DNA of 20,062 nucleotides from a virus (Duplodnaviria; Heunggongvirae; Uroviricota; Caudoviricetes). The DNA lies in the IMG/VR virus record IMGVR_UViG_2778261543_000001; one strand, written 5' to 3'. The translations under genes and the position numbers were made by a program. Shown here piece after piece: positions 67 to 20,062 of the stretch (the stretch's first letter is position 1; each line of letters begins with the position of its first letter). The notes under the pieces are model-generated. The model had not been told where the DNA came from. It was given only the letters and a program-made list of their open reading frames with translations, and did no database searches.

Positions 67-78
67 ACGGAGCCAACA

Positions 79-321: not shown

Positions 322-324
322 GAG

Positions 325-612
325 ATGACTGAACAAGAAATGCCGAGATACCAGTGCCACAAAAAAGTTCGCGCCCTGAAGATTGGCTCTATAGAACATA
401 AGCCAAACCCAGATCAGCCTGGTAAGTCTGGCTCTTCTAGTTATGGGGCAATTATTCATCCGGATGATAAGAAATACGCAGCATTTGATGTTAGCGCGGA
501 ATATATCTGTAAGCACCGACCAATGCCTGGAGGCTATTACGTTGTCTATGAGGATGGATATGAATCATATTCTCCTGCTGAGGTATTTGAGTCTGGATAT
601 TCAAAATTATAG
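325..612 (+). CDS. Hypothetical small phage protein (95 aa)
   Basis: ATG at 325 lies 4 nt after the previous stop, suggesting coupled translation in the same operon. Contains two Cys and a Tyr/Gly-rich C-terminal half; function not recognisable. Confidence 0.6.
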   Translation: MTEQEMPRYQCHKKVRALKIGSIEHKPNPDQPGKSGSSSYGAIIHPDDKKYAAFDVSAEYICKHRPMPGGYYVVYEDGYESYSPAEVFESGYSKL

Positions 613-621
613 GAATCCTCT

Positions 622-801
622 ATGACAATCGTCGTTGATCTTGGTAAGGAGAAGAAATTCCCAATTACTCAAGAGCTATACGAGCGACTTGAAAGCGTCA
701 TCCATGATTACGATGGTGAAATCAGTTTATGCGAGGCGATTGGCACACTCGAATTGCTGAAGCAGTCATTGATGGAAGGAGCGAAAGAGTCCTCAACCTG
801 A
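622..801 (+). CDS. Hypothetical small protein (59 aa), below the ORF-track length cutoff
   Basis: ATG at 622 to TGA at 799-801, read by hand (MTIVVDLGKEKKF...). It fills the otherwise non-coding gap between the 95-aa ORF and the small terminase gene. Ribosome-binding site is weak. Confidence 0.4.
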   Translation: MTIVVDLGKEKKFPITQELYERLESVIHDYDGEISLCEAIGTLELLKQSLMEGAKESST

Positions 802-824
802 AATAACGATTAAGTGAGATTAAT

Positions 825-1313
825 ATGGCAGCACCAAAGGGCAACCGATTTTGGGAGGCCCGCAGTAGTCATGGGCGAAATCCTAAATTCGAATCGCCTG
901 AGGCGCTGTGGGCTGCTTGTTGTGAATACTTCGAGTGGGTGGAAGCTAACCCGCTATGGGAGATGAAGGCGTTCTCGTATCAGGGTGAAGTGATACAAGA
1001 GCCTATCGCCAAGATGCGAGCGATGACCATTACCGGCCTCACTCTGTTCATTGATGTGACGCTTGAAACATGGCGCACGTATCGCCTGCGAGAAGATTTA
1101 TCTGAAGTCGTTACGCGAGCAGAGCAGGTCATCTACGACCAGAAATTCTCTGGCGCAGCCGCTGACCTTCTCAACGCTAATATCATCGCCCGTGATTTGG
1201 GCCTGAAAGAGCAGTCGCAAGTTGAAGACGTGACACCTGATAAGGGAGATCGCGATAAGCGGCGCTCTCGTATCAAGGAGCTATTCAACCGTGGAACTGG
1301 ACGCGATTCTTGA
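825..1313 (+). CDS. 3: Terminase small subunit, P22 gp3 type (162 aa)
   Basis: 162 aa, the same length as P22 gp3, and the sequence ([29 protein letters not shown]...) matches my recollection of P22 gp3 nearly residue for residue. Sits immediately upstream of and overlapping the large terminase gene. Confidence 0.9.
1092..1113. other. Candidate pac site (DNA packaging initiation sequence) inside the small terminase gene
   Basis: GAAGATTTATCTGAAGTCGTTA at 1092-1113, about 267 nt into gene 3. This matches the 22-bp P22 pac sequence as I recall it and its known location inside gene 3. The identification is from memory, not a computed alignment. Confidence 0.55.
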
Positions 1314-2790
1314 TAACCTGAGCGACGAAGAGCAAATCGAATTGCTCGAGCTACTCGAAGAAGAAGAGAACTACCGGAACACACACCTGCTATATGAATT
1401 TACGCCATACAGCAAACAGCGTGAGTTCATCGACGCCGGGCATGACTATCCAGAGCGCTGTTTTATGGCTGGTAACCAGCTTGGTAAGTCATTTACTGGT
1501 GCTGCTGAAGTCGCGTTTCACCTTACCGGGCGTTATCCGGGCACAAAAGGCTATCCTGCTGATGGTAAATATGGCGGTGAGTGGAAAGGTAAGCGTTTCT
1601 ATGAGCCTGTTGTCTTCTGGATTGGCGGCGAGACAAACGAGACTGTAACCAAAACGACTCAACGCATCCTGTGTGGTCGTATCGAAGAGAATGATGAGCC
1701 AGGCTACGGTTCCATACCTAAAGAAGACATCATTAGCTGGAAGAAGTCTCCTTTCTTTCCGAACCTTGTTGATCACCTTCTGGTTAAGCATCACACGGCT
1801 GATGGCGTTGAAGATGGCATTTCAATCTGCTACTTCAAGCCATACTCGCAAGGCCGCGCTCGCTGGCAGGGTGACACAATCCACGGCGTGTGGTTTGACG
1901 AAGAGCCACCATACAGCATTTATGGCGAAGGGCTTACCCGTACCAACAAATACGGGCAATTCTCAATTCTGACGTTTACCCCGCTGATGGGGATGTCTGA
2001 CGTTGTTACCAAGTTCCTGAAGAATCCCAGCAAGTCGCAGAAAGTGGTCAACATGACCATCTATGACGCTGAGCACTACACCGACGAGCAGAAAGAGCAA
2101 ATCATCGCATCCTATCCTGAGCATGAGAGAGAGGCGCGTGCTCGCGGTATTCCTACGATGGGTAGCGGGCGAATCTTCCAGATACCGGAAGAGACGATTA
2201 AGTGTCAGCCGTTCGAGTGTCCTGATCACTTCTACGTAATTGGCGGGATGGATTTTGGATGGGATCACCCGCAGGCGCAGGTTCAGCTTTGGTGGGATAA
2301 GGACGCAGACACAATCTACGTTTCACGCGTGTGGAAGGCGAAAGAAAAAACAGCCGTTCAGGCATGGGGAGCTGTTAAATCATGGGCGCATAAAGTGCCA
2401 ACAGCATGGCCTCATGACGGAAACCAGCACGAGAAGGGCGGCGGTGAGCAGCTCAAAGGGCAGTATGCAGATGCTGGTTTTATGATGTTGCAGGAGCATG
2501 CGACATGGCCTGATGGCGGTAATGCTGTTGAACCTGGCATCACTGAATTGCGCGACATGATGCTCAACGGTCGCTTCAAAGTATTCAACACCTGTGAGCC
2601 ATTCTTTGAGGAGTTTCGCCTCTATCACCGTGATGAAAACGGGAAGATCGTCAAGCTTAACGACGACGTGCTATCCGCCGTTCGCTATGCATACATGATG
2701 CGCCGCTTCGCAAAAATGATGCGCGACATCAAAAAACCAAAAGAGAAAAAGATACCAGCCCCAATCAGGCCCATCGCACGGAGAACTTAA
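1291..2790 (+). CDS. 2: Terminase large subunit (ATPase/nuclease), P22 gp2 type (499 aa)
   Basis: 499 aa as in P22 gp2, with a sequence that matches my recollection of it. Initiates at GTG (1291) with a strong AAGGAG site at 1275-1280. The start overlaps the 3' end of the small terminase gene by 23 nt in another frame. Confidence 0.9.
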
Positions 2791-4956
2791 ATGGCCGACG
2801 AAAACAGACTCAATTCCATTCTGTGTAAGTTTGACGCGGACTGGATGGCGAGCGATGAAGCCAGAACCGAGGCGACAAATGACCTGTATTTTAGCCGAGT
2901 GTCGCAATGGGATGACTGGCTATCAAACTACACTACCCTGCAATATCGCGGACAATTCGATGTTGTTCGCCCGGTGGTCAGGAAACTGGTCGCAGAGATG
3001 CGCCGTAACCCTATCGACGTTCTCTTCAGACCAAAAGACGGCGCTAATCCTGATGCAGCCGATGTGTTGATGGGGATGTATCGTACTGATATGCGCCATA
3101 ACACGGCAAAAATTGCCGTTAACGTTGGCGTTCGTGAGCAGATAGAGTCCGGCGTTGGTGCATGGCGTCTGGTCACGCAGTACGAAGACAACGATCCAAC
3201 AAGCAACAATCAGGTAATTCGACGCCTGCCAATTCATGAAGCCTGCTCACACGTCATATGGGACGCCAACAGCAAGCAGATGGATAAGAGCGACGCTAAG
3301 CACTGCACGGTGATTAACGCTTTGTCACGCAATGGCTGGAAAGAGTTCGCAGAGGATTACGGTATTGATCCGGATACCTTGCCATCTTTCCAGAATCCGA
3401 ACGATACATGGCTGTTTCCGTGGGTATCGAATGATGTCGTCTACGTCGCTGAGTATTACGAGGTCGAAGAGAAGAAAGAGAAAGTCTTCATCTACCGCGA
3501 TCCGCTGACAGGTGAGCCGGTCAGCTATTACCAGCAGGATATTAAAGACGTTATCGACGACCTGGCTAATCGTGGATTCATTAAGGTAGCAGAGCGCAAG
3601 GTGAAGCGTCGGCGTGTGTATAAGTCGATCATCACCTGCACGCAGATACTGAAAGACCGCGAGAAGATAGCCGGAGAGCATATTCCAATCGTTCCAGTGT
3701 ATGGAGAATGGTCATTCGCTGGTGACAAGGAGTGCTACGAGGGAGTGGTAAGGCTGACGAAAGACGGTCAACGCCTTCGTAACATGATCATGTCGTTCAA
3801 CGCCGATATTGTTGCTCGGTCACCGAAGAAGAAACCGACCTTCTTCCCTGAGCAAATCGAAGGCTACGAATACATGTACGGTGGAAATGATGACTATCCG
3901 TACTATCTGCAGAACAGGACCGATGAAAACGGTAACGACCTGCCGATTGGTCCAATCTCCTACATGGAAAACCCTGAAGTGCCGCAAGCCAACGCTTACA
4001 TGCTTGAGGCTGCCACCAACGCAGTGAAAGAGGTGGCTAGTCTTGGCGTGGATGCGCAGGCGGCAAATGGTCAGGTCGCTTTCGATACCGTCAATCAACT
4101 GAACATGCGGGCAGACCTTGAGACATACGTGTTTCAGGATAACCTGGCTACCGCAATGCGACGTGATGGCGAGATTTATGCCTCAATGGTCAACGATATT
4201 TATGACGTTCCTCGTCATGTGACGCTGACACTTGAAGATGGAAGCGAGAAAGACGTTCAACTCTATGCGCAAGTTGTCGATTATCAGTCCGGCAATGTGG
4301 TCACACTCAACGACATTCGCGGTCGCTATGAGTGCTATACGGACGTTGGGCCATCCTTCCAGAGCATGAAGGAACAGAACCGCGCAGAGATTCAGGAGTT
4401 ACTCACCAAGGTTCCGCAAGGTACTCCAGAGTTCCAGATGCTGATGCTGCAATACTTCACGCTGCTTGACGGTAAAGGCGTCGAGATGATGCGAGAGTAC
4501 GCGAACAAGCAACTGGTGATGATGGGACTGAAGAAACCAGAAACACCTGAAGAGATGGAGATGGTACAGCAGGCGCAACAGCAGCCGCAGCAGCCATCAG
4601 CAGAGCAAATTCAGGCGCAGGGTATCCTTCTGCAAGGTCAGGCTGAATTGCTCAAGGCAGAGAACCAACAGGCGCAGATTCAGGTTGAAGCTGCCAAGGT
4701 TGAAGCCCAAAACCAACTCAACGCCGCGAAGATTGCAGAAATCTTCAACAATATGGACCTCGACAAGCAGGCAGAACTGCGTGAGTACCTCAAGCTCGTA
4801 GGTCAATTCCAGCAACAGCGCAGCAAAGATGCTCGTGCTAACGCTGAGCTGCTTCTTAAAGATGCAGACCAGACTCATTCACAACGCATGGATTTCGCGA
4901 ATCTTATGCGTCAAGTTCAAATCCCCTCCGGCGGAGTAGCCGAGACACCTCAATAA
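2791..4956 (+). CDS. 1: Portal protein, P22 gp1 type (721 aa)
   Basis: 721 aa (P22 portal is about 725 aa), starting directly after the large terminase stop with a GGAGA site. The Gln/Ala-rich helical C-terminus ([18 protein letters not shown]...) is typical of the P22 portal barrel. Confidence 0.9.
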
Positions 4957-4969
4957 GAGAGAGTTAATC

Positions 4970-5881
4970 ATGGACCAAACCACCGACATTCAGGCTTCTG
5001 AAGAATTAACCATGCCCGGCAATCATGCAGCGGCATCTGCTGATGGCTTAGTTGTCGATAATGCCAACGACAACGCAGGTCAGGAAGAAGGCTTCGAGAT
5101 TGTCCTGAAAGACGATGAGAAACCAAAACAAGACCCGGCAACTAATGCTGAATTTGCCCGTCGCCGCATCGAACGCAAACGCCAGCGTGAGCTTGAGCAG
5201 CAGATGGAAGCGGTTAAGCGTGGAGAGTTGCCGGAGCACCTGCGGGTGAACCCTGAGTTACCAAAACAACCAGACCCTAACGATTATCTTTCCGAAGATG
5301 CACTGGCTAAGTACGACTATGACCAGAGCCGCGCACTGGCTGCCTTCCAGCAGGCAAACAGTGAATGGCAGATCAAGGCTATGGACGCAAGAAGCCAGGC
5401 TGTCGCCGAGCAGGGTCGCAAAACTCAGGAGTTCACCCAGCAATCAGCGCAATACGTCGAGGCAGCCCGTAAGCACTACGACGCAGCGGAAAAGCTCAAT
5501 ATCCCTGACTATCAGGAGAAAGAGGATGCATTCATGCAACTGGTGCCGCCAGCAGTCGGTGCCGACATCATGCGCCTCTTCCCGGAGAAATCCGCTGCTC
5601 TCATGTATCACCTTGGTGCTAATCCTGAGAAGACACGCCAGTTGCTGGCGATGGACGGGCAATCCGCGCTGATTGAACTCACTCGACTGTCAGAACGTTT
5701 AACTCTCAAGCCTCGAGCCAAGCCTGTTTCAGAAGCCCCGTTACCTGATGAACCCATTCAGGGACACGCTGTTGCTGCAAATATCTCTGCGATTGAAAAG
5801 CAGATGGAAGCGGCAGCAAACAAAGGGGATGTAGAGACGTACCGCAAGCTCAAGGCGCAACTGAATAAAGGAATTCGATAA
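4970..5881 (+). CDS. 8: Scaffolding protein, P22 gp8 type (303 aa)
   Basis: 303 aa, the same as P22 gp8; highly charged, helix-prone composition; lies between portal and coat. Its stop overlaps the coat start (TAATG). Confidence 0.85.
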
Positions 5882-7176
5882 TGGCATTAAATGAAGGTCA
5901 ACTGGTCACGTATGCTCTGGATGAAATCATCGAAACCGTCCAGAACCTGACGCCAATGGCGTCCAAAGTGACAAAATACACCCCTCCGGCAGAATCCATG
6001 CAACGTTCAAGCAACACCGTGTGGATGCCTGTTGAGCAGGAAGCGCCAACCCAGACTGGCTGGGATTTAACTGGCAACGCAACCGGGATTCTGGAACTCT
6101 CCGTGAAATGCAACATGGGCGATCCGGATAACGATTTCTTCGAGCTTCGTGCAGATGACCTGCGTGATGAGCGTTCTTACCGTCGCCGCATCCAGGCATC
6201 CGCCAAAAAACTGGCGAATAACATTGAGTCAGCGATTGCCAAACAGGCAACTGAAATGGGCTCGCTTGTTGTTCACGATACCCGAGCAATTGGTCCATCT
6301 ACTGGCCTGTCTGGCTGGGATTTTGTGTCTGATGCAGAGCGCCTGATGTTCTCCCGTGAGCTAAACCGCGATATGGGCATCAGTTACTTCCTGAACCCTG
6401 ACGATTACCGCAAAGCAGGCCGCAACCTGGTAGATGGTGACATCTTCGGGCGCGTTCCTGAAGAAGCGTATCGCAACGGTACTATTCAGCGTCAGATTGC
6501 TGGCTTTGATGAAATTCTTCGCTCACCGAAACTTCCGGCAGTTACCAAGTCAACCGCTACTGGTGTAACTGTTTCTGGTGCGCAGAAGTTTAAGCCGCAG
6601 GCATACACCCTTGATACCGATGGTAACAAAGAGAACGTCGACAACCGTGTTGCAACGGTGACCGTATCCTCCACCACCGGATTTAAGCGCGGCGACAAAA
6701 TCAGCTTCACTGGTGTGAAGTTCCTGTCTCAGATGGCGAAGAATGTGCTGACTGATGACGCGACTTTCTCAATCACCCGTGTGATCGATAGTACTCACAT
6801 CGAAATCACGCCGAAGCCGATTGCGCTGGATGACGCGTCACTGACAAAAGAAGAGAAGGCTTACGCGAATGTAAACACCTCTCTTGCTGATACCACACCG
6901 GTAAACGTTCTGAACGTGGCAACAACCACCGCTAACGTGTTCTGGGCTGATGACTCAATCCGCCTGCTGTCTCAGCCGATCCCGGTAACCCATGAACTGT
7001 TTGCTGGCATGAAAACGTCTTCCTTCAGCATTCCTGGTATTGGTGTTAACGGCATCTTCGCAACGCAGGGTGATATCAACACTCTGTCTGGTAAGTGCCG
7101 TATTGCTGTGTGGTATTCAGCATGTGCTGTACGACCAGAGGCAATTGGTGTTGGTCTGCCTAACCAGACCGCGTGA
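5881..7176 (+). CDS. 5: Major capsid (coat) protein, P22 gp5 family (431 aa), diverged from P22 itself
   Basis: 431 aa against 430 for P22 coat. N-terminus MALNEGQ..., the RADDLRDE motif and the C-terminal [13 protein letters not shown] agree with recalled P22 coat, but many internal substitutions are visible, so this is a different allele from the P22-identical terminase. Confidence 0.9.
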
Positions 7177-7184
7177 TAACCAGA

Positions 7185-7208
7185 GGGAGCTTCGGCTCCC
7201 TTTTCTAT
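7185..7208 (+). terminator. Rho-independent terminator or attenuator downstream of the coat gene
   Basis: GGGAGC-TTCG-GCTCCC hairpin (7185-7200) followed by TTTTCT, 9 nt after the coat stop codon. Confidence 0.6.
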
Positions 7209-7219
7209 TGGAGATACCA

Positions 7220-7825
7220 ATGAGCGTAATGATTTTTCAGGCTGGCGGAGATACCAAAATATGGGGACGCAAGCTGAAAACGAAAACCGTTGATCCTGAT
7301 GATGTAGCTGTGCACTTAGCAAATGGCTGGTATAAGCACCCTGACGATGTTCCTGATGATCCTCTTGTTGGTGATCAAATTGGGAGTGTTGGCGGAGGTG
7401 AAACTTCCCCAGTTGATATGGGCGAAGTGTCCGACGGTTATCACACTTTTAACGAGCTTTACGCTCACCGAGTGCGCCTCTTCTCATCGCTGATGCATGC
7501 TTACGCTGAGCTTTCGTGGTGGTCTCGCAAACACAGTGACGGTGAAGAGTGGGATGGCTGGATCATTGCTGGTATCACCACTCCAGAAGGCGAAATCACT
7601 TATCACCTACCTGTTGAAGAAATCGAGTTCCTTCCTGAAGGTACTGAGCTTGAGTTCGGGAAAGAGTGGGATGGTCATGAAGCAAATGATGTTCTTGGAC
7701 GACTCCTGAGTTTGCGTCCGGCTATTGCAGAGCCAGAGCCAGAGCCAGAGCCAGAAGAAAAACAGCGTAAAAAGCCTAGTCGAAAACCTAAGGCGGCAGC
7801 AGATGAACCTGACAACGAAGGGTGA
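7220..7825 (+). CDS. Acidic hypothetical protein (201 aa) with an (EP)4 repeat and a Lys/Arg-rich tail, inserted between coat and gp4
   Basis: ATG at 7220 with a GGAGA site 5 nt upstream. The ORF track begins this frame at 7040 inside the coat gene, but 7220 is the first start after the coat terminator. Protein is Asp/Glu-rich and ends ...[22 protein letters not shown].... Its 3' end overlaps the gp4 start by 23 nt. P22 has no gene here as far as I recall. Confidence 0.6.
7729..7752. repeat. Perfect tandem hexanucleotide repeat (AGAGCC)x4
   Basis: Read directly at 7729-7752. Encodes EPEPEPEP in the 7220 frame. The WLWLWLWL and GSGSGSGS stretches in antisense and alternate-frame ORFs are artefacts of this repeat. 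Confidence 0.95.
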
Positions 7826-8303
7826 TTTAGTCCTTGCGGCATTACGTAAGCTCGGTGTTGCATCAAATGCCACGTTAACCGATGTCGAACCGCAGTCTAT
7901 GGAAGACGGCGTCAACGACCTCGAAATGATGATGGCTGAATGGCTTGGCGGTGATGTGTCACCTGGTATCAACGTTGGCTACATTTTTGCTGATGCAGAT
8001 GTCGCTCCGGATCCGGGCGATGAGCACGGTTTATCAAATAACGCTATCAATGCCGTCATTTTCAACCTTGCCTGCCGCATTGCTCCAGATTATGCGCTGG
8101 AAGCGTCTGCAAAACTTATAACCACTGCCAGATACGGTAAAGAGCGACTCGTCAAACTGTCTGCAATGGATAGGGCAAAAGCCGCTAAATGTAAGTCCGG
8201 TTATCCAAACCGTATGCCTGTTGGTAGCGGTAACCAGTTGGCGAAGTGGAACGGTTGGAATTACTTCCACCGGAAGGAACCTTGCGATAACGGGAGCGAA
8301 TAA
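7803..8303 (+). CDS. 4: Head-completion / tail-adaptor protein, P22 gp4 type (166 aa)
   Basis: Starting at the ATG at 7803 gives 166 aa, the P22 gp4 length, and the sequence ([27 protein letters not shown]...[14 protein letters not shown]) matches recalled gp4. The ORF-track start at 7725 is an upstream extension running through the repeat. Confidence 0.85.
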
Positions 8304-9722
8304 ATGCCGATTCAGCAACTTCCGCTTATGAAAGGTGTCGGCAAAGACTTTCGAAACGCCGACTATATCGACTATCTGCCAGTGAATATGTTGGCTACAC
8401 CCAAAGAAATCCTTAACAGCAGCGGATATCTTCGCTCATTCCCGGGCATTGCCAAACGTTCCGACGTGAACGGTGTATCGCGCGGCGTCGAGTACAACAT
8501 GGCGCAGAATGCTGTTTATCGCGTGTGTGGCGGCAAGCTCTACAAAGGCGAAAGCGAAGTCGGTGACGTCGCCGGAAGTGGTCGTGTATCAATGGCGCAT
8601 GGTCGGACATCACAGGCAGTAGGCGTTAATGGTCAACTGGTCGAGTATCGCTATGATGGCACGGTTAAAACCGTCTCAAACTGGCCTACAGACAGCGGAT
8701 TCACGCAGTATGAGTTAGGTTCAGTCCGCGACATTACGCGCTTACGTGGGCGTTATGCGTGGTCAAAAGACGGCACTGATTCATGGTTTATCACTGACCT
8801 TGAAGACGAATCGCATCCTGACCGCTACAGCGCACAATATCGTGCTGAGTCTCAGCCTGACGGCATCATCGGCATCGGAACATGGCGAGACTTCATCGTC
8901 TGCTTTGGTTCATCGACGATTGAATATTTCTCCCTGACTGGCGCAACAACTGTTGGTGCTGCTTTGTATGTCGCACAGCCATCACTGATGGTGCAGAAAG
9001 GCATTGCCGGAACTTACTGCAAAACGCCATTCGCTGATTCGTATGCGTTTATCAGCAATCCGGCAACGGGTGCGCCGTCTGTATACATCATCGGATCCGG
9101 TCAGGTGTCACCAATCGCCAGCGCGAGCATTGAGAAAATTCTCCGCTCCTACACTGCTGATGAACTGGCTGATGGTGTGATGGAGTCTCTGCGATTTGAT
9201 GCGCATGAGCTGCTGATTATCCATCTTCCGCGCCATGTTCTGGTGTACGACGCATCTTCAAGCGCCAATGGTCCGCAATGGTGTGTACTGAAAACAGGCC
9301 TGTATGACGATGTGTATCGCGCTATCGACTTCATTTACGAAGGCAATCAGATAACGTGCGGCGATAAGCTGGAATCCGTGACCGGGAAATTGCAATTCGA
9401 TATCAGCAGCCAGTACGACAAGCAACAGGAACATCTGCTGTTTACTCCACTCTTCAAAGCAGATAACGCCAGAGTTTTCGACCTTGAGGTTGAATCGTCA
9501 ACTGGCGTTGCGCAGTACGCTGACCGCCTGTTCCTCTCTGCAACCACTGACGGCATCAATTACGGGCGTGAGCAGATGATTGAGCAGAATGAACCGTTCG
9601 TTTACGACAAACGCGTTTTGTGGAAGAAAGTAGGGCGCATCAGGAAAAACATTGGCTTCAAATTGCGCGTTATCACTAAGTCACCTGTCACTCTGTCTGG
9701 CTGCCAGATAAGGATTGAGTAA
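8304..9722 (+). CDS. 10: Tail hub / head-completion protein, P22 gp10 type (472 aa)
   Basis: 472 aa, the same as P22 gp10; it follows gp4 directly (TAA then ATG) with a GGGAG site. Assigned by size and conserved order. Confidence 0.85.
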
Positions 9723-10570
9723 TGGCTGATTCGAATCTTAATGTGCCGGTAATCATTCAGGCTACACGACTCGACACATCAGTCCTTCCGCGTAATATCT
9801 TCTCGCAGTCGTATCTGCTTTACGTTATCGCACAGGGAACTGATGTTGGTAACGTGGCTAACAAAGCCAACGAGGCCGGACAGGGCGCTTATGATGCACA
9901 GGTCAGGAACGATGAGCAGGATGTGATTCTGGTCGATCACGAAATTCGACTGGCATCGGCTGAAGCGAAGATACAGGACCACGAAACAAGGATCACTAAC
10001 GCAGAAGCGGCGATAGTCGGCCTTGATTCACGATTAACGACAGCAGAAAACGATATTGATTATCTGACTGATGAAGTTATCGCCATTCAAAACACGCTTT
10101 CAGACCATGAAACGCGCATCGATGCTCTGGAGTATGCCACTACTCGCAAGAAGTCAGAGGTTGTTTACTCTGGCGTATCTGTAACCATCCCGACAGCGCC
10201 GACCAACCTTGTTAGCCTGCTGAAAACGCTCACGCCGTCATCTGGCTCGTTGGCACCATTCTTCGACACTGTTAACAACAAGATGGTTGTGTTCAACGAG
10301 AACAAAACCTTGTTCTTCAAGCTGTCGATCGTCGGGACGTGGCCCAGCGGAACCGCCAACAGGTCAATGCAGCTAACCTTTTCCGGCTCTGTTCCTGACA
10401 CGTTGGTCAGCAGTCGTAATGCAGCGACAACAACCGATAACATCCTGTTAGCTACGTTCTTCAGCGTGGATAAAGACGGCTTTCTTGCCACAAATGGCAG
10501 CACGTTAACCATTCAGTCGAATGGTGCGGCGTTTACTGCCACAACCATCAAGATAATCGCGGAGCAGTAA
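9722..10570 (+). CDS. 26: Tail needle (cell-puncturing plug), P22 gp26 family, 282 aa with a C-terminal extension
   Basis: N-terminus [43 protein letters not shown]... matches the recalled gp10-binding N-terminal domain of P22 gp26. The centre carries repeated DHE(I/T)R heptad-type coiled-coil motifs. At 282 aa it is longer than P22's 233 aa, and the extra C-terminal part is Ser/Thr/Asn-rich, as in the knobbed needles of Sf6/HK620-type phages. Confidence 0.9.
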
Positions 10571-11025
10571 TGATTCAGTTCAAACCAACGCGAAACATCG
10601 ACCTGATAGAAGCAGTCGGAAATCACCCTGACATCATCGCCGGGAGCAACAACGGTGATGGATACGACTACAAACCTGATTGCCGTTACTTTGAGGTGAA
10701 CGTGCACGGTCAGTTTGGCGGCATTGTTTACTATCAGGAGATTCAGCCGCTGACATTCGATTGCCACGCCATGTACCTGCCAGAGATTCGCGGATTCAGC
10801 AAGGAAATCGGGCTGGCGTTCTGGCGATACATTCTGACTAACACCACCGTTCAGTGCGTCACATCGTTCGCCGCACGCAAATTCCGCCACGGGCAGATTT
10901 ACTGCGCAATGATTGGCCTTAAGCGTGTCGGAACCATCAAGAAATACTTCAAAGGCGTGGATGACGTGACTTTTTACAGCGCCACACGCGAAGAACTAAT
11001 CGACTTCCTGAATCACGGGAGATAG
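10570..11025 (+). CDS. Protein in the P22 gene-14 position (151 aa); probable assembly or ejection-associated protein
   Basis: Start overlaps the gp26 stop (TAATG) with a GGAG site. It occupies the slot between tail needle and gp7 that gene 14 fills in P22. I do not recognise the sequence, so the call is positional only. Confidence 0.45.
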   Translation: MIQFKPTRNIDLIEAVGNHPDIIAGSNNGDGYDYKPDCRYFEVNVHGQFGGIVYYQEIQPLTFDCHAMYLPEIRGFSKEIGLAFWRYILTNTTVQCVTSFAARKFRHGQIYCAMIGLKRVGTIKKYFKGVDDVTFYSATREELIDFLNHGR

Positions 11026-11027
11026 CC

Positions 11028-11720
11028 ATGTTATATGCATTTAAGCTGGGCAGAAAACTGCGCGGCGAGGAACCTTATTGCCCTGAAAAAGGCGGGAAAG
11101 GTGGCAGCTCTGATAAAAGCGCAAAGTATGCAGCAGAAGCTCAGAAGTATGCCGCAGACCTGCAAAATCAGCAGTGGCAGACGATCATGAAAAACCTTGC
11201 TCCGTTCACGCCGCTTGCGGAGCAGTATGTTAACCAGCTTCAGAATCTTTCCAGTTTAGAAGGTCAGGGGCAGGCACTTAATCAGTATTACAATTCTCAG
11301 CAGTATAAAGACCTTGCAGGTCAGGCGCGTTACCAGAGTCTTGCTGCTGCGGAGGCGACGGGTGGACTTGGTTCGACAGCCACAAGCAATCAACTGGCTA
11401 CGATCGCGCCGACACTCGGTCAGTCTTGGTTATCAAACCAGATGAGCAATTACAACAATCTGGCAAACGTTGGGCTTGGTGCGCTGCAAGGTCAGGCAAA
11501 CGCCGGGCAGACGTACGCCAACAACATGAGCAGCATTGCACAGCAAAGCGCAGCTCTTGCCGCTGCTAATGCCAACAAACCATCAAGTCTTCAGACAGCA
11601 ATTAGTGGCGGAACGTCTGGTGCGATTGCCGGTGCAGGTCTTGCCAGCCTTTTGGGGACATCAACACCTTGGGGCGCTGGCATTGGTGCTGGTATCGGAT
11701 TGCTTGGCTCGTTGTTTTAA
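11028..11720 (+). CDS. 7: Ejection (internal virion) protein, P22 gp7 type (230 aa)
   Basis: 230 aa (P22 gp7 about 229 aa) at the expected position. Gln/Ala/Asn-rich with a Gly-rich hydrophobic C-terminus (GAIAGAGLASLLG...GIGAGIGLLGSLF), consistent with a membrane-inserting ejection protein. Confidence 0.7.
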   Translation: MLYAFKLGRKLRGEEPYCPEKGGKGGSSDKSAKYAAEAQKYAADLQNQQWQTIMKNLAPFTPLAEQYVNQLQNLSSLEGQGQALNQYYNSQQYKDLAGQARYQSLAAAEATGGLGSTATSNQLATIAPTLGQSWLSNQMSNYNNLANVGLGALQGQANAGQTYANNMSSIAQQSAALAAANANKPSSLQTAISGGTSGAIAGAGLASLLGTSTPWGAGIGAGIGLLGSLF

Positions 11721-11729
11721 GGGGTAATC

Positions 11730-13136
11730 ATGGCTACTTGGCAAGGATCAAATGGCGGATTGTTAGCTGGTATCGGCGGCGTCAACTCAAACGCTCCGAG
11801 CGTAAATGACATCGGCAATACGCTTCAGCTTATCAGGCAGAACAATGATATTGAGCGTTCAGGCGCTAACAATGTTGGGCTGACTGCTTTGCAAGGTCTT
11901 TCAGGTATTGCAGGGGTGTTTCAGCAGGAAAAGCAGGCTCAGCGGCAGAAAGAATTTCAGCAGGCGTACGCTAATGCTTATGCGTCTGGTGATCGCGGTG
12001 CTTTGCGTCAGTTGGCTACTCAATATCCAGACCAGATTGAATCCGTTCGTAAAGGCATGGGATTCATTGATGAAGACCAGCGCAATTCTATCGGCACCTT
12101 AGCGGCTGGCGCACGCCTTGCGGCCTCGTCTCCAGAAGCAATGCAATCATGGCTGCAAAACAACGCCAATGAGCTGGCGCGCGTCGGTGTTGACCCTAAT
12201 AACGTTGCTCAGATGTATCAGCAGAATCCTTCAGGATTTGGTGAGTTTGTTGATCACCTTGGGATGGCTGCTCTTGGTCCGATTGATTACTTCAATGTTC
12301 AGGACAAGATGGCAGGTCGTGAGATTGACCGAGGCAGGCTGGCAGAGACAATCCGCAGCAATCAGGCTGGTGAAGCACTTCAGGCGAGAGGGCAAAACCT
12401 TTCCTATCAGTCAGCAATGACTGGGCACAATATCGCAGCACAACGCTTGGCTCTGGATCAGCAAGAGTTCGGGTTTAAGATGCAGCAAGCGCAGGAAAAG
12501 GCTCAGCAGTTGATTAGCGAAGCACCTAAGCTGTCAGTAAACATGGAAAAAGGCATCGAGACGGCTGTAAACAATGCCACAGCATCATCAAACTCAGCCA
12601 ATTCCATGAGTGCGCTTGCTCAACAGTTCAGAGCAGAAAAACCAACGACCGGTTTGTTCGGTAACGCACAGAACATGTTCGCAAAACTTACCGGAAGCGA
12701 TACGACATTGCGTGATTTGCGCATTCGCCAAAATGCCCTTGTTAACAGTCAGGTTCTTAAATTCCTACCTCCCGGCCCAGCAACGGATAAAGACGTTGAG
12801 ATTGTTCGACAGGGTGCGCCAACTGACATGGATAACCCTGAGACGGTCGCAAGATGGCTTGATGCAATGGCAAACCTTGAGCGACGAAACGCGCAGTTTA
12901 ATGAGTTTAAAGCTGAGTGGATGAGCGCGAATGGCAACCCTGGACAATCGCGTAATGGCGGTCAGATATTGGGGTTGGATGTTAAAAAAGGTGAATCATT
13001 GGGGAGTGCCGTTAAGCGGTATATGTCAATGAATACTGACGCAGCGCCAGCACAAGATTCGACACCTTCAGGAGAACCACGGAATCAGGTTGGATCATAT
13101 ACCTCAAAATCAGGCATTCAATTTACGGTGGAATGA
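11730..13136 (+). CDS. 20: Ejection protein, P22 gp20 type (468 aa)
   Basis: 468 aa (P22 gp20 about 471 aa), in the conserved 7-20-16 order, with an AAGGGG site. Its stop overlaps the gp16 start. Confidence 0.7.
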
Positions 13137-14977
13137 TGAAAGTAACTGCAAACGGTAAGACATTTACCTTTCCTGATGGTACGAGCACCGAAGATATTGG
13201 CACCGCCATTGATGAGTATTTTGCTGGTCAGGCTGTTCAGCAACAAACAGTTAATCAGGCCAATAATGCACCAACACGGGAAGAACCATCATTGATGCAA
13301 CAAGCTGGCGATTGGCTCACTGGTGGTCAAAGTGCAGGGCAAATTGCGGAACAGGCTGGTCGTGGTCTGGTAAACATACCATTTGACGTATTGCAGGGCG
13401 GCGCAAGTCTGATTAATGCAATCAGTCAGGGGCTTGGTGGACCCAAGGTTTTGGATGATGTTTATCGTCCAGTAGACAGACCGACAGACCCCTACGCTCA
13501 AGCTGGAGAAACAATTGGCGGGTATTTAGTTCCAGGAGTTGGAACGGCAGGAAGCATGGCTATTGGATCACTGGCAGAGGCCGCAAATCAGAAAGGTGAT
13601 TTCGCACAAAATGCAGCTAAAAATGCCGGAGTTAACCTTGCCGCTCAGGGTGTTCTTTCCGCAGCAGCAAAGGGAATAGGGCGTGGAATAACGGCTATAA
13701 AAGGTGATATTGCGCCAGAAGTGGCAAAGAAAATTGCCACATCAGAATCGATGGGCGTGACACCAATGACATCTGATGTTATCCCGCCGAAAAATGCTTT
13801 CACTCGCGGACTTACTCAGGATGCTGAGGGGGCTTTGCTCGGGACAGGCTCAAAGCGAGCGGAGCAATATGCAACGCGTAGTAAGCTGGTAAGCAATTAT
13901 TTTGACCGTTTTGGTGAGTACAACCCTGATGATGTGGTGAAATCTCTGACCACCACGTTAAGGGGACGGAAGGATGCCGCTGGCGCTGTTATCAATGACG
14001 TCACCAATAAAATGGGTAATGCCGCAGTTGATACCACAAATACCATGAATGCTCTGAATACAGCGATCGCAAGACAGGAACGGCTTGGGACGTCTGCCAA
14101 TCAAAGCCTGCTTACATCCTTGCGTAACCTACGTGAAGAATTAGCAAACCCTGCAACTGATTTGGATGTTACGTTTGATCTCTTGCGTCAGCACAGAACA
14201 GCATTTAGATCTAATGTTCAGGGAGATGCTATGGTCTTCCCCAACCAGGCAAAAGCAGCTACCAATATGGTAGAGAATGCAATGTCAAAAGACCTTCGTA
14301 ACGCAGTTGCAAAAAACCTCGGTGCATCAGACGCAGCAAAATACCTTAAAGCAAATTCCGATTATGCAAACGTTTATAATAAGGTTCTTAATAAAAACAT
14401 TGCTAACAAGCTCAACAAGGCAAGCAGTGAAGCCAGTCCTGAACTTATAAATACCGTTGTATTAAGCAGAAAACCATCTGACGTGAAACGAATCTGGAGC
14501 GCACTGGATGATAAAGGGAAAGATGCTATGCGTGCAGCTTACGTCAGCAAAATAGCGGAAAAGGCCGGTGACTCTCCAGCCAAGTTCATCACTGAAGTTA
14601 ATAAGCTGAAATCTCAGTCAGGTGGTGAAATTTACAACACTATTTTTTCTGGAAAGCACATGAAAGAGCTTGATGCTCTTCATGAAGTTCTACAGCAAAC
14701 AGCAAGGTCAGACACCGCAAATGTAGTAACTCAGACGGGGCAATCGCAAGCCAACAGGATAAGGACGATTGGCGCAACTGCGACTCTTGGCGTATCAATG
14801 GGGCTTGAGGCTGGTTTCGGTGCAATGATGCGCTTGTATGAATCCAAAGCAGCAAGGAATGCGCTCTTACGTCTGGCAAACACCAAAGCTGGAACGCCAG
14901 CTTATGAAAGAGCGCTAAATAATGCTGCAAATGCGATACGTCCTATACTTTCAAGCCAAATTACAGCAGAACAATAG
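13133..14977 (+). CDS. 16: Ejection protein, P22 gp16 type (614 aa)
   Basis: 614 aa (P22 gp16 about 609 aa). It is the last gene of the 7-20-16 block and starts in the ATGATG at 13133-13138, which contains the gp20 stop (TGA, 13134-13136). Confidence 0.7.
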
Positions 14978-15026
14978 ATAAATAATTAACTAAGCACATA
15001 ACTACTGACAGATAACCAACGCAACG

Positions 15027-15050
15027 ACCCAGCTTCGGCTGGTTTTTTTA
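15027..15050 (+). terminator. Rho-independent terminator between gp16 and the tailspike gene
   Basis: CCAGC-TTCG-GCTGG hairpin (15029-15042) followed by a run of seven T, about 50 nt after the gp16 stop. Confidence 0.6.
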
Positions 15051-15107
15051 TGCCCAAAATTCACCGTAGCCACGCTGCGGCGTTTCCTTGTATCTGGAGC
15101 AAATTAA

Positions 15108-17057
15108 ATGACAGACATTACAGCCAATGTTGTAATTGGGATGCCTTCGCAACTCTTCACTATGGCTCGTTCTTTTAAAGCCGTAGCCAATGGCAAAATT
15201 TATATCGGTAAAATTGACACTGACCCGGTAAATCCTGAAAACCAGATTCCGGTTTATATAGAGAACGAAGACGGTTCTCACGTTCCTGTTTCGCAACCAA
15301 TTATCATTAACGCTGCTGGTTATCCTGTATATAACGGGCAGATTGCCAAGTTCGTAACTGTGCAAGGCCATTCTATGGCTGTTTATGATGCATACGGTGC
15401 TCAGCAGTTTTATTTTCCGAATGTTCTGAAGTACGATCCTGACAGATTGCGACAGGATTTAGCGCTTCCAACAGGCGCTGAGCTTGTAGGCGTGCAACCA
15501 CAAGGAAATCTTTCGCAAGTCATTCAGTTTGTATCTCCAGAGCAGTTTGGCGCCATCGGAGATGGTACGGTTCATCCATTATCTGAGCGTTATGCGACTC
15601 TTGCAGCAGCGCAGGCTGTATACCCATTCGTAACATCTCTGACCCAGACAATTGACTGGGCAGCGTGTCAGGCGGCTGAGAACTATGCGCGTGGTAAAAC
15701 AGCGGTAAGATGCCCTTTCTACGCCAAGTATCATCTTGGCAACAATTATCTTGAGCTAAGCGAGAAAAGTAAATGGTATGGCAATGACAATCCCACTATA
15801 GATCGCCCATGCACCACTATCATACGAGAGGGAAATGCTGGCAGCTTCGGAAGAAATGCAATCGTCCGCGTTATGAGCTCTAGCGAAGCAGGAAGTTCGG
15901 ATGAATTTGTTCGCGGAGTCGTTTTCAAAGGTTTCTATTTATCTAGAAACCGCCCTCGTCGATTTAACAGCAAGTATGAAGGGTCAATAGGCTTTCATGT
16001 TAACTTTGCAATTAGAGCAGATATCGACGTGGCAATAAGCGGCTGTGAATATGGCCTTTTTGGCTATGGGTGCTGGGGACTGGTTGGTAGGGTTCGCGTG
16101 GATTCATGCCATAAATCTATTTGGCTGGATCCTGACACCGCAACTCCAGAGCATACCAACCCAGGCGGTTCAATAACGGCTCTTGATTTACGCGTAGAGG
16201 TGGATGCATGCGTCTACGGACCAGTGCTTCGACATGTGCAATATAGTAGAATTTCTGGATGGGTCGAAGGAATGCTTATTGATTCCGCAGTATACCCAAT
16301 CTATGACTACACCAACGAAACAGCTATAGCTATTACGGCATATGGATGCGATGGTTTAGATATAGAAAATCTAGGAATTGAAGCCTGGCAGGGAGTGATG
16401 GTTTACGCCAATTCCAGTACAGTATCCACTGGGATAAAATGGAATCAAGGAGCATTACTAACAAATACAACCGGTAAACACGGGCCATACCAGGCCATGG
16501 CAGCACTTACTGGCGCAACAGAATTGTTCACTTTACCATCGACTAACAACTCATATTTCTATGCAAAAAGTGGAGGCCTACTTAAGTTAAGAAATATGAC
16601 AGGAGATATGTCGACCGCTTCTTTCGCAAATACATTCCTTGTTACGGTTGATGCTGACTCTCGATTCTTAATGGAGAATACTGGCATTTACTTTGGAAGT
16701 AGTCGACTAATTGCCCCCGGCAATTGGGAGAATATTGAATTTATCAACGATAGATTCATGCAGAACTATATGGTGCCAGCTGGGTACTCATATGAAGGAC
16801 GCGGTATTTGTACTGCTAGCGCATGGTCAAACAAGACGATAAATGCCGGCGATGGTAGGGTTACACTTGATGCCCCTACTGGGTGGAAAATTATTGATTT
16901 TGTGGCCTACGTAATAACAAGCACCATATCACAAACTAGAAGCTACTCTCCTGTAGGAGTTGTATCCACATCAGATACGCGGATTATTCTGCAGACTGGT
17001 GTGGACACTACAGGTTTTTCTGTAACCTACAAACTAAGACTAAAGGTAATAAAGTAG
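15108..17057 (+). CDS. 9: Tailspike protein (649 aa): P22 gp9-like N-terminal head-binding domain fused to an unrecognised receptor-binding domain
   Basis: The first ~110 aa ([11 protein letters not shown]...[36 protein letters not shown]...[12 protein letters not shown]) match the recalled P22 gp9 head-binding domain. The rest has no resemblance to the P22 endorhamnosidase domain, though its Gly/Asn/Ser/Thr-rich repetitive composition would suit a beta-helix fold. TGGAG site upstream. Confidence 0.9.
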
Positions 17058-17061
17058 AGTG

Positions 17062-17086
17062 AAAGCCCCTTACGGGGCTTTTTTAT
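17062..17086. terminator. Terminator hairpin between the convergent tailspike and gtrC-like genes
   Basis: AAAGCCCC-TTAC-GGGGCTTT hairpin (17062-17081) with a T-run to 17086, 5 nt after the tailspike stop and overlapping the stop of the - strand gene. The T-tract follows only on the + strand, so termination of the minus-strand gtr transcript is less certain. Confidence 0.6.
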
Positions 17087-18603
17087 ATGCCTGTTTTTAT
17101 TCTGTGGTTGTAAACCATTATTATCATGCCATTGTAACTTAGAACTTCATCAGGACTGCCAATAGTAGCCTCGACTCCTTTCCTACATAAATCTATGTCT
17201 GCGCACTGATCTCCAGTATTGCCCTTCCTTAAAGCTATGAACTGTCGTTCAGGTTTTGATTCTACAAATTCATTTGTGTGCCAAAACTTCATTGTTTGAA
17301 CGCGGGCATCCTTGAAGTTGATAACCCCTGTTTTTTTATGAAAGTAAACAGGGGTTATATGTATGTCTCCGCCAGACAGCCAATTCACGCCCATAGACAT
17401 CCCCCAAAAACTACCATATCCGTAAGTAAGATCATGATGCTTAAGGAAGTCTATATATGAATTGACAGGGTTATCGTTAAGCTTGTAGCGAATATTCATT
17501 AATGAGTAGCCATAAATGCACGTAGCAAAACTTAACAGCAAAGGAATTACTAATAATATAGCTCGTTTAGAAGATGCTGCTACTGACAATAGCACGATCA
17601 CCATTGGGGCAATATTAAGATAAAATCTTTGATGGGGAGTTTGATCACCTATTATTGAAGATGAGTATATTCCTGCTATAGACATGATTGAAAATATTGC
17701 AATGTAGCGAGCCGCACCGCCTCGCTTTATGCATATGAACACGGCATATAAGCATGTAATAGACCATGTAAAAAATATTGCATACCTGAAATACTCGTTG
17801 CCTATATTCGTTATTGGCAACATCTTGGCTGTGATATCAACAGCAAGCCTGGCATTATCAAGCATAACATCAAAAGGTGCCAAGTGGAAAGAGTGAACAG
17901 GAAGACCTATAATCTTTTGAATTACATTTGAGAAAGCCAATGCAAAAAACACAAAGTATATAATGAAATTTCTTTTTGTGGTTTTCTCAAAAACGATGAT
18001 AGCACACTCAGTAATTATCATTGGTAGGAAAAAAGCCGCCAGAAGCCATGGATCAGACGCGCTCGCTAGCAGCGAAATCAAAGAGCATACAAACGGTATA
18101 AATATGTTTTTGCTTTTTAAGCTTAACACAAACAAAGAAAAAACTACGAACCCATACGCATTAGTAGAGTTATGCGAAAATGGGTGTGAGAAATAACCGT
18201 GTCTGTATAGGTCTGGAGAAACAAATGTTATGCATATTAAAGCAATTAAAGCTAGATAGTTACCTGAACATGACCTAACCATTTCTGTTACGCATGCTGT
18301 GATAACAAAAATAAATATTGCGCTTGATATCACTAATGGCAACAGACCATCATCACCGAGCAGTAAAAACAAAGCAAAGTTTACTGGATAAACTGTAAAA
18401 TACCAGTTATCAAATGTTGGTTGCCATTGAGTAAAAGAACTCCATCCACTGTCCAGGAATGCCCTCCAAACTATTGGGCTATTGGCGGCATCTGCATCCC
18501 CTGACCATAAGTAGCTGTGTCGCGATGTAAGATAAAGAGACACGCAAAAAGATGCGAGATATAAAAAACACCAAAAAGCTCTGCTATCAGATATCCTATT
18601 CAT
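17083..18603 (-). CDS. GtrC-like serotype-specific O-antigen glucosyltransferase (polytopic inner-membrane protein, 506 aa); specificity unknown
   Basis: Third gene of a gtrA-gtrB-gtrX arrangement, with its start overlapping the gtrB stop (ATGA). The protein is very hydrophobic with many predicted membrane spans and a ~130-aa hydrophilic C-terminal domain. AT-rich codon usage. I do not recognise it as a specific named Gtr type. Confidence 0.7.
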
Positions 18604-19523
18604 GATTTACTAACACCCTTTAATATATAACGAGGCCTATTTTTGGACTCAACATATATCCTGCCAATGTACTCACCAAGAACGCCAATGCCAATCAATT
18701 GAACCCCGCCAAGGAACAGAATAGAGACAAGCAGGGATGGATATCCACGCACAGCATTGCCGAAGGCCAGTGTGTCGATAATCATCCAAGCACCGTACAG
18801 AAACGCCACTCCAGCTACGAACAGGCCAATGTAAGTCCACATGCGCAACGGGAAAGTAGAGAAGCTTGTGATCCCCTCAAGTGCCAGGTTCCACAGTTTC
18901 CATCCATTAAATTTAGTACTGCCTGCCACTCGTTCTGCGCGTGCATACTCGACAACATCTGTGCGACCGCCAACCCAACTCAGCACACCTTTCATAAAAA
19001 GGTTGCGCTCTGGCATAAGCTTAATGTTTTCGACAACTTCACGGCTCATTAACCGGAAATCGCCAACGTTTTCTTCTATCTTTGGGTTGCTGATTTTGTT
19101 ATGAAGCTTATAGAACCACTCAGCAGATTTACGTTTTAGTCGGCTGTCAGTTGAGCGATCAGAGCGCTTAGCAAGAACCATATCCGCGCCGGCCTGCCAC
19201 TTCTCAATAAGATGAGGGATGACTTCAATCGGGTCCTGCAGGTCAACGTCAATTGGAATTACAGCCTCTCCGGTTGCATGTTCTAACCCTGCAAACAATG
19301 CTGGTTCTTTACCAAAGTTGCGTGTAAATGACAGTGGAACAACCAGCGGGTCTGAAACAGCCAGAGCATTAATAATTGACTCCGTAGCGTCTTTACTTCC
19401 GTCATTTATGAATACAATTTCCACTTCATATGGCTTCAACTCTTCGAATTCACGTACCGTTTTATAGAAAATTGGTATCGCTTCTTCTTCATTGAGGACA
19501 GGAACAACCAGAGATATCTTCAT
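18600..19523 (-). CDS. gtrB: Bactoprenol glucosyltransferase GtrB (GT2 family, 307 aa)
   Basis: N-terminal GT2 fold signature ([14 protein letters not shown]...INDGSKD...) with a DxD-type motif (PIDVDLQDP) and two C-terminal hydrophobic helices, as in GtrB. Flanked by gtrA and the gtrC-like gene with ATGA overlaps. Confidence 0.9.
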
Positions 19524-19882
19524 TTCGCATTCCTAAAGACAATGAGCTTTGAATAGACGAAACCGCACACCAGGCTGATGGCGGAGAAAGTGATAAGGGT
19601 GACCATTGGAGGAAGTGCACATCTATCAGCAGCCCATCCAATAGTTGCACTCAGTGTTCCCATGAACCCGACATATAACATGTAGCGCATCGTTGTAGTT
19701 GATGCTTTGAATGTGAATTTTGCATTCGCGAAGAAGCTAAAACTCACAGCCACAACAAAACCTGCGAAGTTTGCCAGAGCCTGATTGGTATGCGCGGCAT
19801 AGATACATACACCAAAAACCACCCAGTGTATAAGTGTGTTCAGCACGCCAATCGAGGTGTACTTTGCAAATAGCTTTAACAT
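19520..19882 (-). CDS. gtrA: GtrA, small membrane protein (flippase for undecaprenyl-phosphate glucose), 120 aa
   Basis: 120 aa with four hydrophobic segments, first gene of the operon, typical GtrA size and position. Confidence 0.85.
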
Positions 19883-19920: not shown

Positions 19921-20062
19921 TGGATTTGCCCCTATATTTCCAGACACCTGTTATCACTTAACCCATTACTGGCTTGCTGCCGTAGATATTCCCGTGGCGA
20001 GCGATAACCCAGTGCACTATGCGGATGCCATTCGTTATAATGCTCGAACGCCTCTGCAAGGT
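19921..20062 (-). mobile_element. IS2 insertion sequence, right terminal inverted repeat plus 3' end of the transposase gene; truncated by the window edge
   Basis: 19921-19961 (TGGATTTGCCCCTATATTTCCAGACACCTGTTATCACTTAA) matches the IS2 right inverted repeat as I recall it, with one mismatch. The adjoining minus-strand reading frame ends in a typical IS2 transposase C-terminus. Confidence 0.8.
19932..20062 (-). CDS. insD: IS2 transposase (orfB/InsD) C-terminal fragment; 5' part lies outside the window
   Basis: Minus-strand translation from the window edge reads ...[42 protein letters not shown], with the stop at 19932-19934. This is the conserved IS3-family integrase-fold C-terminus and matches the recalled IS2 InsD tail. 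Confidence 0.75.

Follow-up and report, generated by a model that had tools for sequence, protein, structure and literature searches.

Which glycan does a phage bind when its tailspike attaches to the virion by a familiar P22-type domain and the part that faces the host belongs to no named family, and how did the two come together? The question is raised by positions 15108-17057 (plus strand) of the window, i.e., the whole stretch of 20,062 nucleotides analysed here, where one intact open reading frame, running from ATG to TAG, encodes a tailspike of 649 amino acids. A database protein 100% identical to it, NCBI WP_244568665.1, carries the label 'phage head-binding domain-containing protein [Escherichia coli]'. 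The gene lies directly 3' of the gp7/gp20/gp16 injection (ejection) genes and occupies the distal end of a P22-type virion module, complete from terminase to gp16. In a search with the whole window, this module (56-15461) showed 95-96% DNA identity to E. coli phages APC_JM3.2, Dewey and IME10, and portal, coat and DNA-transfer proteins are annotated in the P22-like coliphages that were matched. One of the loci used for comparison, L001, has the same gene order as the window, with Pfam labels present. The sequence is prophage DNA throughout, and at its end has an IS3 fragment where an integrase is expected; no tRNA or attachment site was found within the window.

The head-binding, or virion-attachment, domain occupies residues 1-113 (15108-15446, plus strand). 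These residues match all 113 model positions of Pfam PF09008, Head_binding (E = 4.7e-66; 220.6 bits, with a cut-off of 24), and align with residues 1-119 of Sf6 gp14 (E = 1.9e-65) and residues 1-114 of P22 gp9 (E about 1e-50), proteins with N-terminal structures; identity is about 93% to Sf6 gp14 and 72-75% to P22. Foldseek matches of the domain are 1lkt, 7sg7 and 8tvr. PF09008 is common to the window spike, P22 gp9, Sf6 gp14, HK620 gp9 and the CUS-3 endosialidase, and P22-like tailspikes also have in common with it the gene position after gp16, a joint at residue ~112-118 and a β-helical receptor part. Judged from PF09008, gene position and the predicted β-helix, the window spike belongs to the P22-like tailspike class.

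Similarity to these phages stops abruptly. Megablast of the tailspike gene against 50,697 phage records matched 30 P22-like phages, among them Sf6, HK620, CUS-3, IME10, epsilon34 and the BASEL phages Dewey, Huey and Louie; each match stops at base 336-356 of the query, which is window 15443-15463, and covers at most 18% of the gene. Homology of the whole window to APC_JM3.2, Dewey and IME10 likewise ends at 15449-15461. Because DNA homology to P22-like phages ends within 15443-15463, the primary joint is at residue ~112-118, nucleotide ~15445-15461. It is held in a linker or neck (residues 114-140; 15447-15527, plus strand) of low model confidence (pLDDT 55-66, with helices predicted at 111-127). 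Past the joint, phmmer and family-profile searches found no similarity to the P22 endorhamnosidase, and matches to 2xc1 and 8tvr end at residue 114; on these comparisons the tailspike falls outside the endorhamnosidase family of receptor-binding domains.

Much of this had been anticipated by a sequence-only reading of the locus, which took the N-terminal ~110 residues to be P22 gp9-like, placed the joint at roughly 15450 and called the protein beyond it unrelated to the P22 endorhamnosidase. Those proposals stand, with protein and DNA matches limited to the N-terminal region. The same reading regarded domain swapping at this joint as well established, and all matches to P22-like phages do end at the same joint; exchange of domains here, and across phage genera, is already established, and the gene is an unremarkable case of domain swapping in phage tailspikes. 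The reading erred on composition. It described the DNA past the joint as visibly more AT-rich, and GC instead rises slightly, from 42.5% in 15108-15458 to 45.2% in 15459-17057, so AT-richness was rejected as a marker of the joint. The first 800 nucleotides past the joint have 48.1% GC and the last 800 have 42.2%; the tailspike gene as a whole is lower in GC than the virion module (50.2%), and it is the adjoining gtrC, at 37.8%, that is clearly AT-rich.

What, then, is the part past the joint? We built an AlphaFold2 monomer model from a family alignment, A1, of 89 sequences with the window tailspike as the first row. Mean pLDDT is 89.6, exceeding 90 for nearly all residues between 140 and 649. 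The model consists of the head-binding β domain, a poorly defined helical linker (111-127), a helical cap (144-194), many short β strands at about 197-445, and an all-β C-terminal region (482-647). Its structural neighbours are gp42 of Acinetobacter phage AS12 (score 32.0; 387 residues aligned at 15% identity), Belisarius gp86 (31.0), CBA120 TSP2 (28.4), phi297 (25.0), LKA1 gp49 (22.8) and HK620 (20.0). Since the neighbours, from AS12 gp42 to HK620, are tailspikes, the receptor-binding part is predicted, at high pLDDT in this monomer model, to be a right-handed parallel β-helix, the fold expected for tailspikes and the one that the earlier reading proposed to look for by structure prediction. 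The likeness to AS12 gp42 (6eu4) and CBA120 TSP2 (5w6p), at 14-15% identity, is one of fold alone, with no sequence-level relationship.

The helix is preceded by a conserved N-terminal cap, residues 141-195 (15528-15692, plus strand), with a motif that ends in IDWAACQAA (33 letters of it are not shown here). This cap is common to otherwise unrelated tailspikes, including those of Pseudomonas phage LKA1 (gp49) and phi297. PDB hits are 4ru4 for residues 141-192 (E = 5.4e-15) and 4ru5 for residues 144-197 (E = 5.5e-14); with the family profile the cap matches residues 15-63 of 4ru4 (E = 9.3e-24), as well as 4ru5 (E = 3e-22). Column conservation is 83-90%, and 20 cap residues are invariant. The cap motif is what the window spike has in common with LKA1 gp49 and phi297 gp27 (4ru4, 4ru5), which are O-antigen lyase tailspikes; adaptor and host differ, and no sequence similarity to them is detectable in the helix body and active-site region.

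The helix body, residues 196-460 (15693-16487, plus strand), presumably provides the glycan-binding and catalytic face. In A1 its invariant residues are H297, W323, T357, D366, G384, E387, Y399, E404-T405-A406 and E425, and D332, C334, H335, K336, D341 and E348 are nearly so. Together with the C-terminal region the body has 17 invariant residues beyond the 20 in the cap, and the window tailspike, being the first row of the alignment, carries every family-invariant residue. Residues 461-649 (16488-17054, plus strand), delimited by predicted secondary structure and regional identities, would form a C-terminal β-sandwich region. Searches with the single protein and with the family profile found no PDB relative of the helix body, and Pfam, NCBIfam and PHROGs gave no named family past residue ~195; the labels seen are PF09008 and unnamed tail PHROGs limited to the cap.

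The receptor-binding family is narrow: a census with residues 196-649 against 1.84 billion representatives of 50% identity clusters returned 32 clusters at E <= 0.001, 14 of them at E <= 1e-30. Close alleles (90-100% identity) number about 25, every one of them found in a draft genome or read-set assembly of E. coli, and in 5,426 complete E. coli genomes nothing matched beyond the first 224-328 nucleotides past the joint. More distant members, at 40-73% identity, come from Obesumbacterium, Kosakonia, Yersinia, Cronobacter, Pantoea, Proteus, Morganella, Hafnia and Enterobacter. The N-termini of family members are PF09008 (P22 type), PF18668 (TSP1/gp66 type), PF03906 (T7 fibre type), PF03374, or none recognised, so that by domain annotation the same receptor-binding family sits on at least four different adaptors. 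Megablast and tblastn against the 50,697 phage records found no near-identical characterised tailspike, the best phage relative being 58% identical. Near-identity of the C-terminal part to a characterised spike would have spoken against the suggestion of a possibly uncharacterised glycan specificity, and the suggestion is supported; the family has no named label and the helix body no PDB relative.

That best relative is QBJ02991.1, the sole tailspike of the Kagunavirus ZCEC5, a phage isolated on O157:H7 NCTC 12900. Identity is 58% over residues 110-645 (543 aligned), with 66% in the helix and 41% in the C-terminal region; the two spikes are of the same receptor-binding family, and the ZCEC5 adaptor is of siphovirus type where that of the window spike is PF09008. 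Pas et al. 2023 (PMC10408124), who define subtypes of receptor-binding proteins by at least 30% amino-acid identity in the receptor-binding domain, list the ZCEC5 spike in supplementary file 1 as subtype X19, an orphan whose serogroup specificity is not validated. On that threshold the window spike groups with X19 by sequence, and the likeness confers no functional label, as the serogroup specificity of X19 is listed as not validated. Of 53 papers naming ZCEC5, the ten ranked highest are, as far as titles and abstracts go, on encapsulation or biosensors or are reviews, and the tailspike is not their subject; the deposited name of the protein, '63D sialidase', has no support in any result here.

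A second relative is the one member of the family that comes with a phenotype. Gp51 of Proteus phage BigMira, an Acadevirus tail fibre with a depolymerase domain, is 50% identical over 94% of the receptor-binding part, and Gp51 of MidiMira, another Proteus Acadevirus, is likewise a relative at 50% identity. BigMira is a member of the Autographiviridae, and its 545-residue Gp51 has no head-binding domain, in contrast to the window spike with its PF09008. BigMira makes plaques with halos, and MidiMira, which has no halo, is set apart from it by four missense changes, each of them in Gp51 (PMC10537623). Mapped through A1, the Tyr-to-Cys change falls on W385 of the window spike, an always-aromatic column within the invariant motif G384..E387; A580 and D582, which belong to a conserved GDG motif with an invariant G583, correspond to the Gly-to-Ser and Asp-to-Asn changes; and Q629 corresponds to Phe-to-Leu. 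The loss of halo in MidiMira thus indirectly connects Gp51, and by analogy perhaps the window spike, with depolymerisation, the four mutations being confounded with one another.

The receptor-binding part is itself a mosaic. A second recombination joint lies just past the cap, at 15683-15782: in two of the comparison loci, DNA identity stays at 92-95% beyond the first joint, as far as 15782 in L004 and 15683 in L008, and from there drops steeply, recovering at 18643, in the 3' end of gtrB. Synonymous divergence differs by region as well. Relative to L001, dS is 0.33 in the head-binding domain and 0 in the helix; relative to L002, it is 0.64-0.92 in the cap and helix and 0 in the C-terminal region. 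These differences confirm recent piecewise transfer. By such comparisons the number of joints in the tailspike gene is three or more, with positions at residues ~118, ~192-225 and ~460, and the C-terminal region recombines independently of the helix body. Over the entire gene dN/dS is 0.16-0.19 (against alleles at 98% and 90% identity), which shows it to be under purifying selection. In the C-terminal region the ratio of nonsynonymous to synonymous changes is 9:2 against L001 and 5:0 against L002, with recurrent allele differences at 571/572, 580, 584, 586 and 605.

What the spike binds is suggested by the genes on its other side. Convergent with the tailspike gene is a gene for a membrane protein of 506 amino acids (17083-18603, minus strand), a candidate serotype-specific O-antigen glucosyltransferase of gtrC type. 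Its sole phage relative is GtrI of Shigella phage SfI, and we call the gene a GtrI-like gtrC because its product is 40% identical to that protein along 95% of its length. No Pfam or NCBIfam model describes it, and it has no match in the 5,426 complete E. coli genomes. It is accompanied on the same strand by gtrB, a bactoprenol glucosyltransferase of GT2 (18600-19523; PF00535, E = 1.4e-30), and gtrA, a flippase-type small membrane protein (19520-19882; PF04138, E = 1.9e-13). By gene content the three make up a gtrABC O-antigen glucosylation cluster, in which the transfer activity is predicted. SfI GtrI and the window GtrC are both 506 amino acids long and both come after gtrA and gtrB; unlike SfI GtrI, the window GtrC is convergent and co-inherited with the 3' end of a tailspike gene, in a P22-like prophage, and with an identity of 40% the two may have different acceptor sugars. 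Exactly between the convergent stops of tailspike and gtrC, at 17062-17081 (no strand assigned), direct reading of the intergenic sequence revealed a hairpin, AAAGCCCC-TTAC-GGGGCTTT, followed by a T run, which the pattern scan did not report and which is likely a terminator.

GtrC and the spike tend to change together. In L001 and L002, with spikes 98% and 90% identical overall, GtrC is 96% identical in both. In L003 and L004, with spikes about 62-66% identical beyond residue 117, GtrC differs from that of the window; in L004 (62%) it is an unrelated PF14264 GtrC, at 21%, and GtrC is also at 21% in L008, whose spike beyond residue 195 is about 31-36% identical. The flanking genes do not follow this pattern: gtrA and gtrB of L001, L002 and L004 are about 95-97% identical to those of the window, and gtrB is 94-97% identical across loci whatever the tailspike type. 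The convergent pair of spike family and GtrC family recurs in siphovirus-type prophages, namely L011 of Hafnia alvei (helix 50%, C-terminal region 79%, GtrC 87%) and L009 of Obesumbacterium proteus (helix 74%, C-terminal region 63%, GtrC 56%). By these identities the C-terminal domain and gtrC behave as one inherited block, and a prophage with this block would carry both a recogniser of O-antigen and the transferase that masks it. The linkage is imperfect and could reflect physical proximity alone, since the Hafnia GtrC tracks the adjacent C-terminal domain and not the helix. Pairing of spikes with O-antigen modification is already established in phages; what is new here, as far as sequence comparison goes, is the receptor-binding family with its internal joints and the GtrI-like gene that travels with it.

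Taken as a whole, then, we consider it probable that the gene encodes the functional tailspike of an E. coli prophage of the P22-like (Lederbergvirus) type, a P22-like spike that binds O-antigen, is probably an endoglycosidase, and is co-inherited with a GtrI-like gtrC. Residues 1-113 would dock the spike to the tail hub, as shown for P22 and Sf6, and the linker and the widely shared cap would lead into the β-helix and C-terminal β-sandwich of what is assumed to be a trimer, as for other tailspikes. The β-helix and C-terminal part would bind the O-antigen of the host along the helix, and the spike would most probably cleave it as an endoglycosidase, allowing the virion to reach the outer membrane. 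The receptor-binding part would come from a small enterobacterial tailspike family exchanged among podovirus-, siphovirus- and T7-type adaptors, and GtrABC of the lysogen would glucosylate the O-antigen, so that re-adsorption or superinfection is blocked. We favour O-antigen as the target because the 3' part of the spike travels with the convergent GtrI-like gtrC; trimer state, target and hydrolytic cleavage are all argued by analogy with P22, Sf6 and HK620. The candidate active site would lie around D332/H335/K336, D366, E387, E404 and E425.

The best-surviving alternative keeps the architecture and the O-antigen target, and makes the enzyme a polysaccharide lyase, acting by β-elimination at uronic acid, instead of a hydrolase. 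It is live because the sole sequence link of the spike to a solved enzyme is the cap common with LKA1 gp49, a lyase, and because the family has a conserved D-x-C-H-K motif. The active site of LKA1 gp49 is made by His494/Asp497/His499, and the protein has a β-barrel insertion domain (PMC5701251); for this site and this domain no counterpart was matched in the window spike. The invariant ladder of carboxylates, together with hydrolase tailspikes among the top structural neighbours, favours a hydrolase, and we regard a lyase as unlikely.

Less likely again is a spike directed against capsule or another exopolysaccharide, as in the P22-like phage CUS-3, whose tailspike, annotated as an endosialidase, combines the PF09008 adaptor with a capsule-specific domain. 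Structurally, the spike comes closest to two Acinetobacter tailspikes, both of which act on capsule and one of which carries a depolymerase annotation, and the family has members in Cronobacter, Pantoea, Kosakonia and Proteus, genera that make abundant capsule or EPS. A capsule target is made less likely by the tight convergent linkage of the spike with the gtrABC O-antigen glucosylation operon, in which the serotype-specific gtrC changes along with the spike body. The isolation of ZCEC5, with a spike of this family as its only one, on an O157:H7 strain also speaks for O-antigen, as does the host range of BigMira, which its authors relate to the LPS locus (PMC10537623).

A third possibility, which we judge very improbable, is that the spike plays no enzymatic part, being either a binder of glycan only or the decaying remnant of a defective prophage: the terminal IS3 fragment in place of an integrase, the excess of nonsynonymous changes in the C-terminal domain among close alleles, and the L002 allele, which sits in a clearly degraded prophage keeping only gp20, gp16, spike, gtr and int, agree with it, and against it are the intact frame of 649 amino acids, equal in length to that of the alleles, the complete virion module upstream, the overall dN/dS, the retention of all family-invariant residues and the halo phenotype tied to the homologous gene in BigMira (PMC10537623).

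Beyond the O-antigen-binding endoglycosidase that we prefer, a bolder reading may be ventured, which we think possible but doubtful as a whole. According to it, the spike represents a depolymerase family that is new, of narrow distribution and of an O-antigen specificity beyond all characterised tailspikes, and forms with its GtrI-like partner a two-gene serotype cassette that would 'recognise and then mask'. The active site would possibly be unusual, combining D332-x-C-H335-K336 with the carboxylates D366/E387/E404/E425; the two genes of the cassette may travel together between prophages of podovirus and siphovirus type in Escherichia, Hafnia and Obesumbacterium; and adaptive fine-tuning may centre on the loop at 571-586 in the C-terminal domain.

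The interest of such a spike is partly practical. Receptor-binding domains of tailspikes decide which O-serogroup is attacked by a phage or an engineered tailocin, and each newly defined specificity is an extra reagent for typing or targeting. Expressing the window spike would fill one empty cell of the map from receptor-binding proteins to serogroups, and the GtrI-like transferase linked to it would tell which change in the O-antigen protects the lysogen. The understanding of tailspikes and their modular exchange is unchanged, the principle being a textbook one.

Two smaller features lie near the start of the tailspike gene. An open reading frame of 107 amino acids on the minus strand (15048-15371), which overlaps the coding region of the head-binding domain, was treated as spurious; it is unrelated to the 107-amino-acid genes upstream of the spikes in L003 and L004. 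The other feature, reported by the pattern scan, is a terminator-like hairpin, CCAGCTTCGGCTGG, followed by a T7 run, which separates gene 16 from the tailspike gene at 15029-15049 on the plus strand.

A β-helix cap motif of the tailspike (residues 141-195; window 15528-15692, plus strand) shows column conservation of 83-90%, far above that of the remaining protein. Phages of Pseudomonas, Klebsiella, Acinetobacter and Salmonella have this motif in tailspikes that are otherwise unrelated. Because a recombination joint is located directly 3' of it, the cap may serve as a homology patch for domain exchange.

The differences between near-identical E. coli alleles of the tailspike recur in a stretch of the C-terminal domain, residues 571-605 (window 16818-16923, plus strand). 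The recurrently variable residues are 571/572, with changes of S to R or I and of A to E; 580; 584; 586, which is T, A or V; and 605. In this domain, nine nonsynonymous and two synonymous differences separate the window from L001, the locus with a 98% identical allele, and five nonsynonymous and no synonymous differences separate it from L002, where the allele is 90% identical; across the whole gene, in contrast, dN/dS is 0.16-0.19. Small as these counts are, they may reflect diversifying selection on the C-terminal domain. The GDG motif (residues 580 and 582) is the map position of two of the halo-associated changes between Proteus phages BigMira and MidiMira (PMC10537623).

The closest phage homologue of the window tailspike, that of phage ZCEC5 (L015; MK542015.1, 24050-26047), was deposited under the product name "tailspike 63D sialidase". 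None of our searches supported the sialidase name, and its receptor-binding part, rather than being an endosialidase, belongs to the same receptor-binding family as that of the window tailspike.

Upstream of the tailspike, gene 16 is followed only by a 130-nt spacer (14978-15107) containing a terminator-like hairpin (15029-15049). The immI region (arc, mnt, ant), which is present in L001, in L004 and L008, two loci with more divergent spikes, and in L011, a Hafnia alvei prophage of siphovirus type, is absent from this interval. A minus-strand ORF of 107 aa (15048-15371), which runs across part of the sequence encoding the head-binding domain, shows no relationship to the genes of equal length that precede the spike in L003 and L004; most probably it is spurious.

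The gtrC-type gene next to the tailspike (17083-18603, minus strand) encodes a 506-aa protein matched by none of the Pfam and NCBIfam models and is, by sequence, a rare GtrI-like variant, with 40% identity to GtrI of Shigella phage SfI. The databases yielded no more than 63 relatives, of which the nearest outside E. coli is from Hafnia alvei (87% identity), and a search of 5,426 complete E. coli genomes for the gene gave 0 matches.

The L002 allele resides in a heavily degraded prophage (GCA_052268225.1, locus 6623-16075), which keeps only gp20, gp16, the tailspike, gtrABC and the integrase; the adjoining genes encode the domains PF01226 (formate/nitrite transporter), PF04333 (MlaA) and PF03349 (Toluene_X). 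We take these flanking genes to resemble yfdC, mlaA and fadL of E. coli K-12, the genes around the CPS-53 yfdGHI remnant; if this assignment is right, it would suggest that the spike-gtr block has been selectively retained.

At its end, the window carries a fragment of an IS3-family element (19921-20062), in the place of the integrase that adjoins gtrA in the related prophages L002 and L004. The element is present in 4,364 of the 5,426 E. coli genomes (median 3, maximum 41 copies) and was probably the cause of the contig break.
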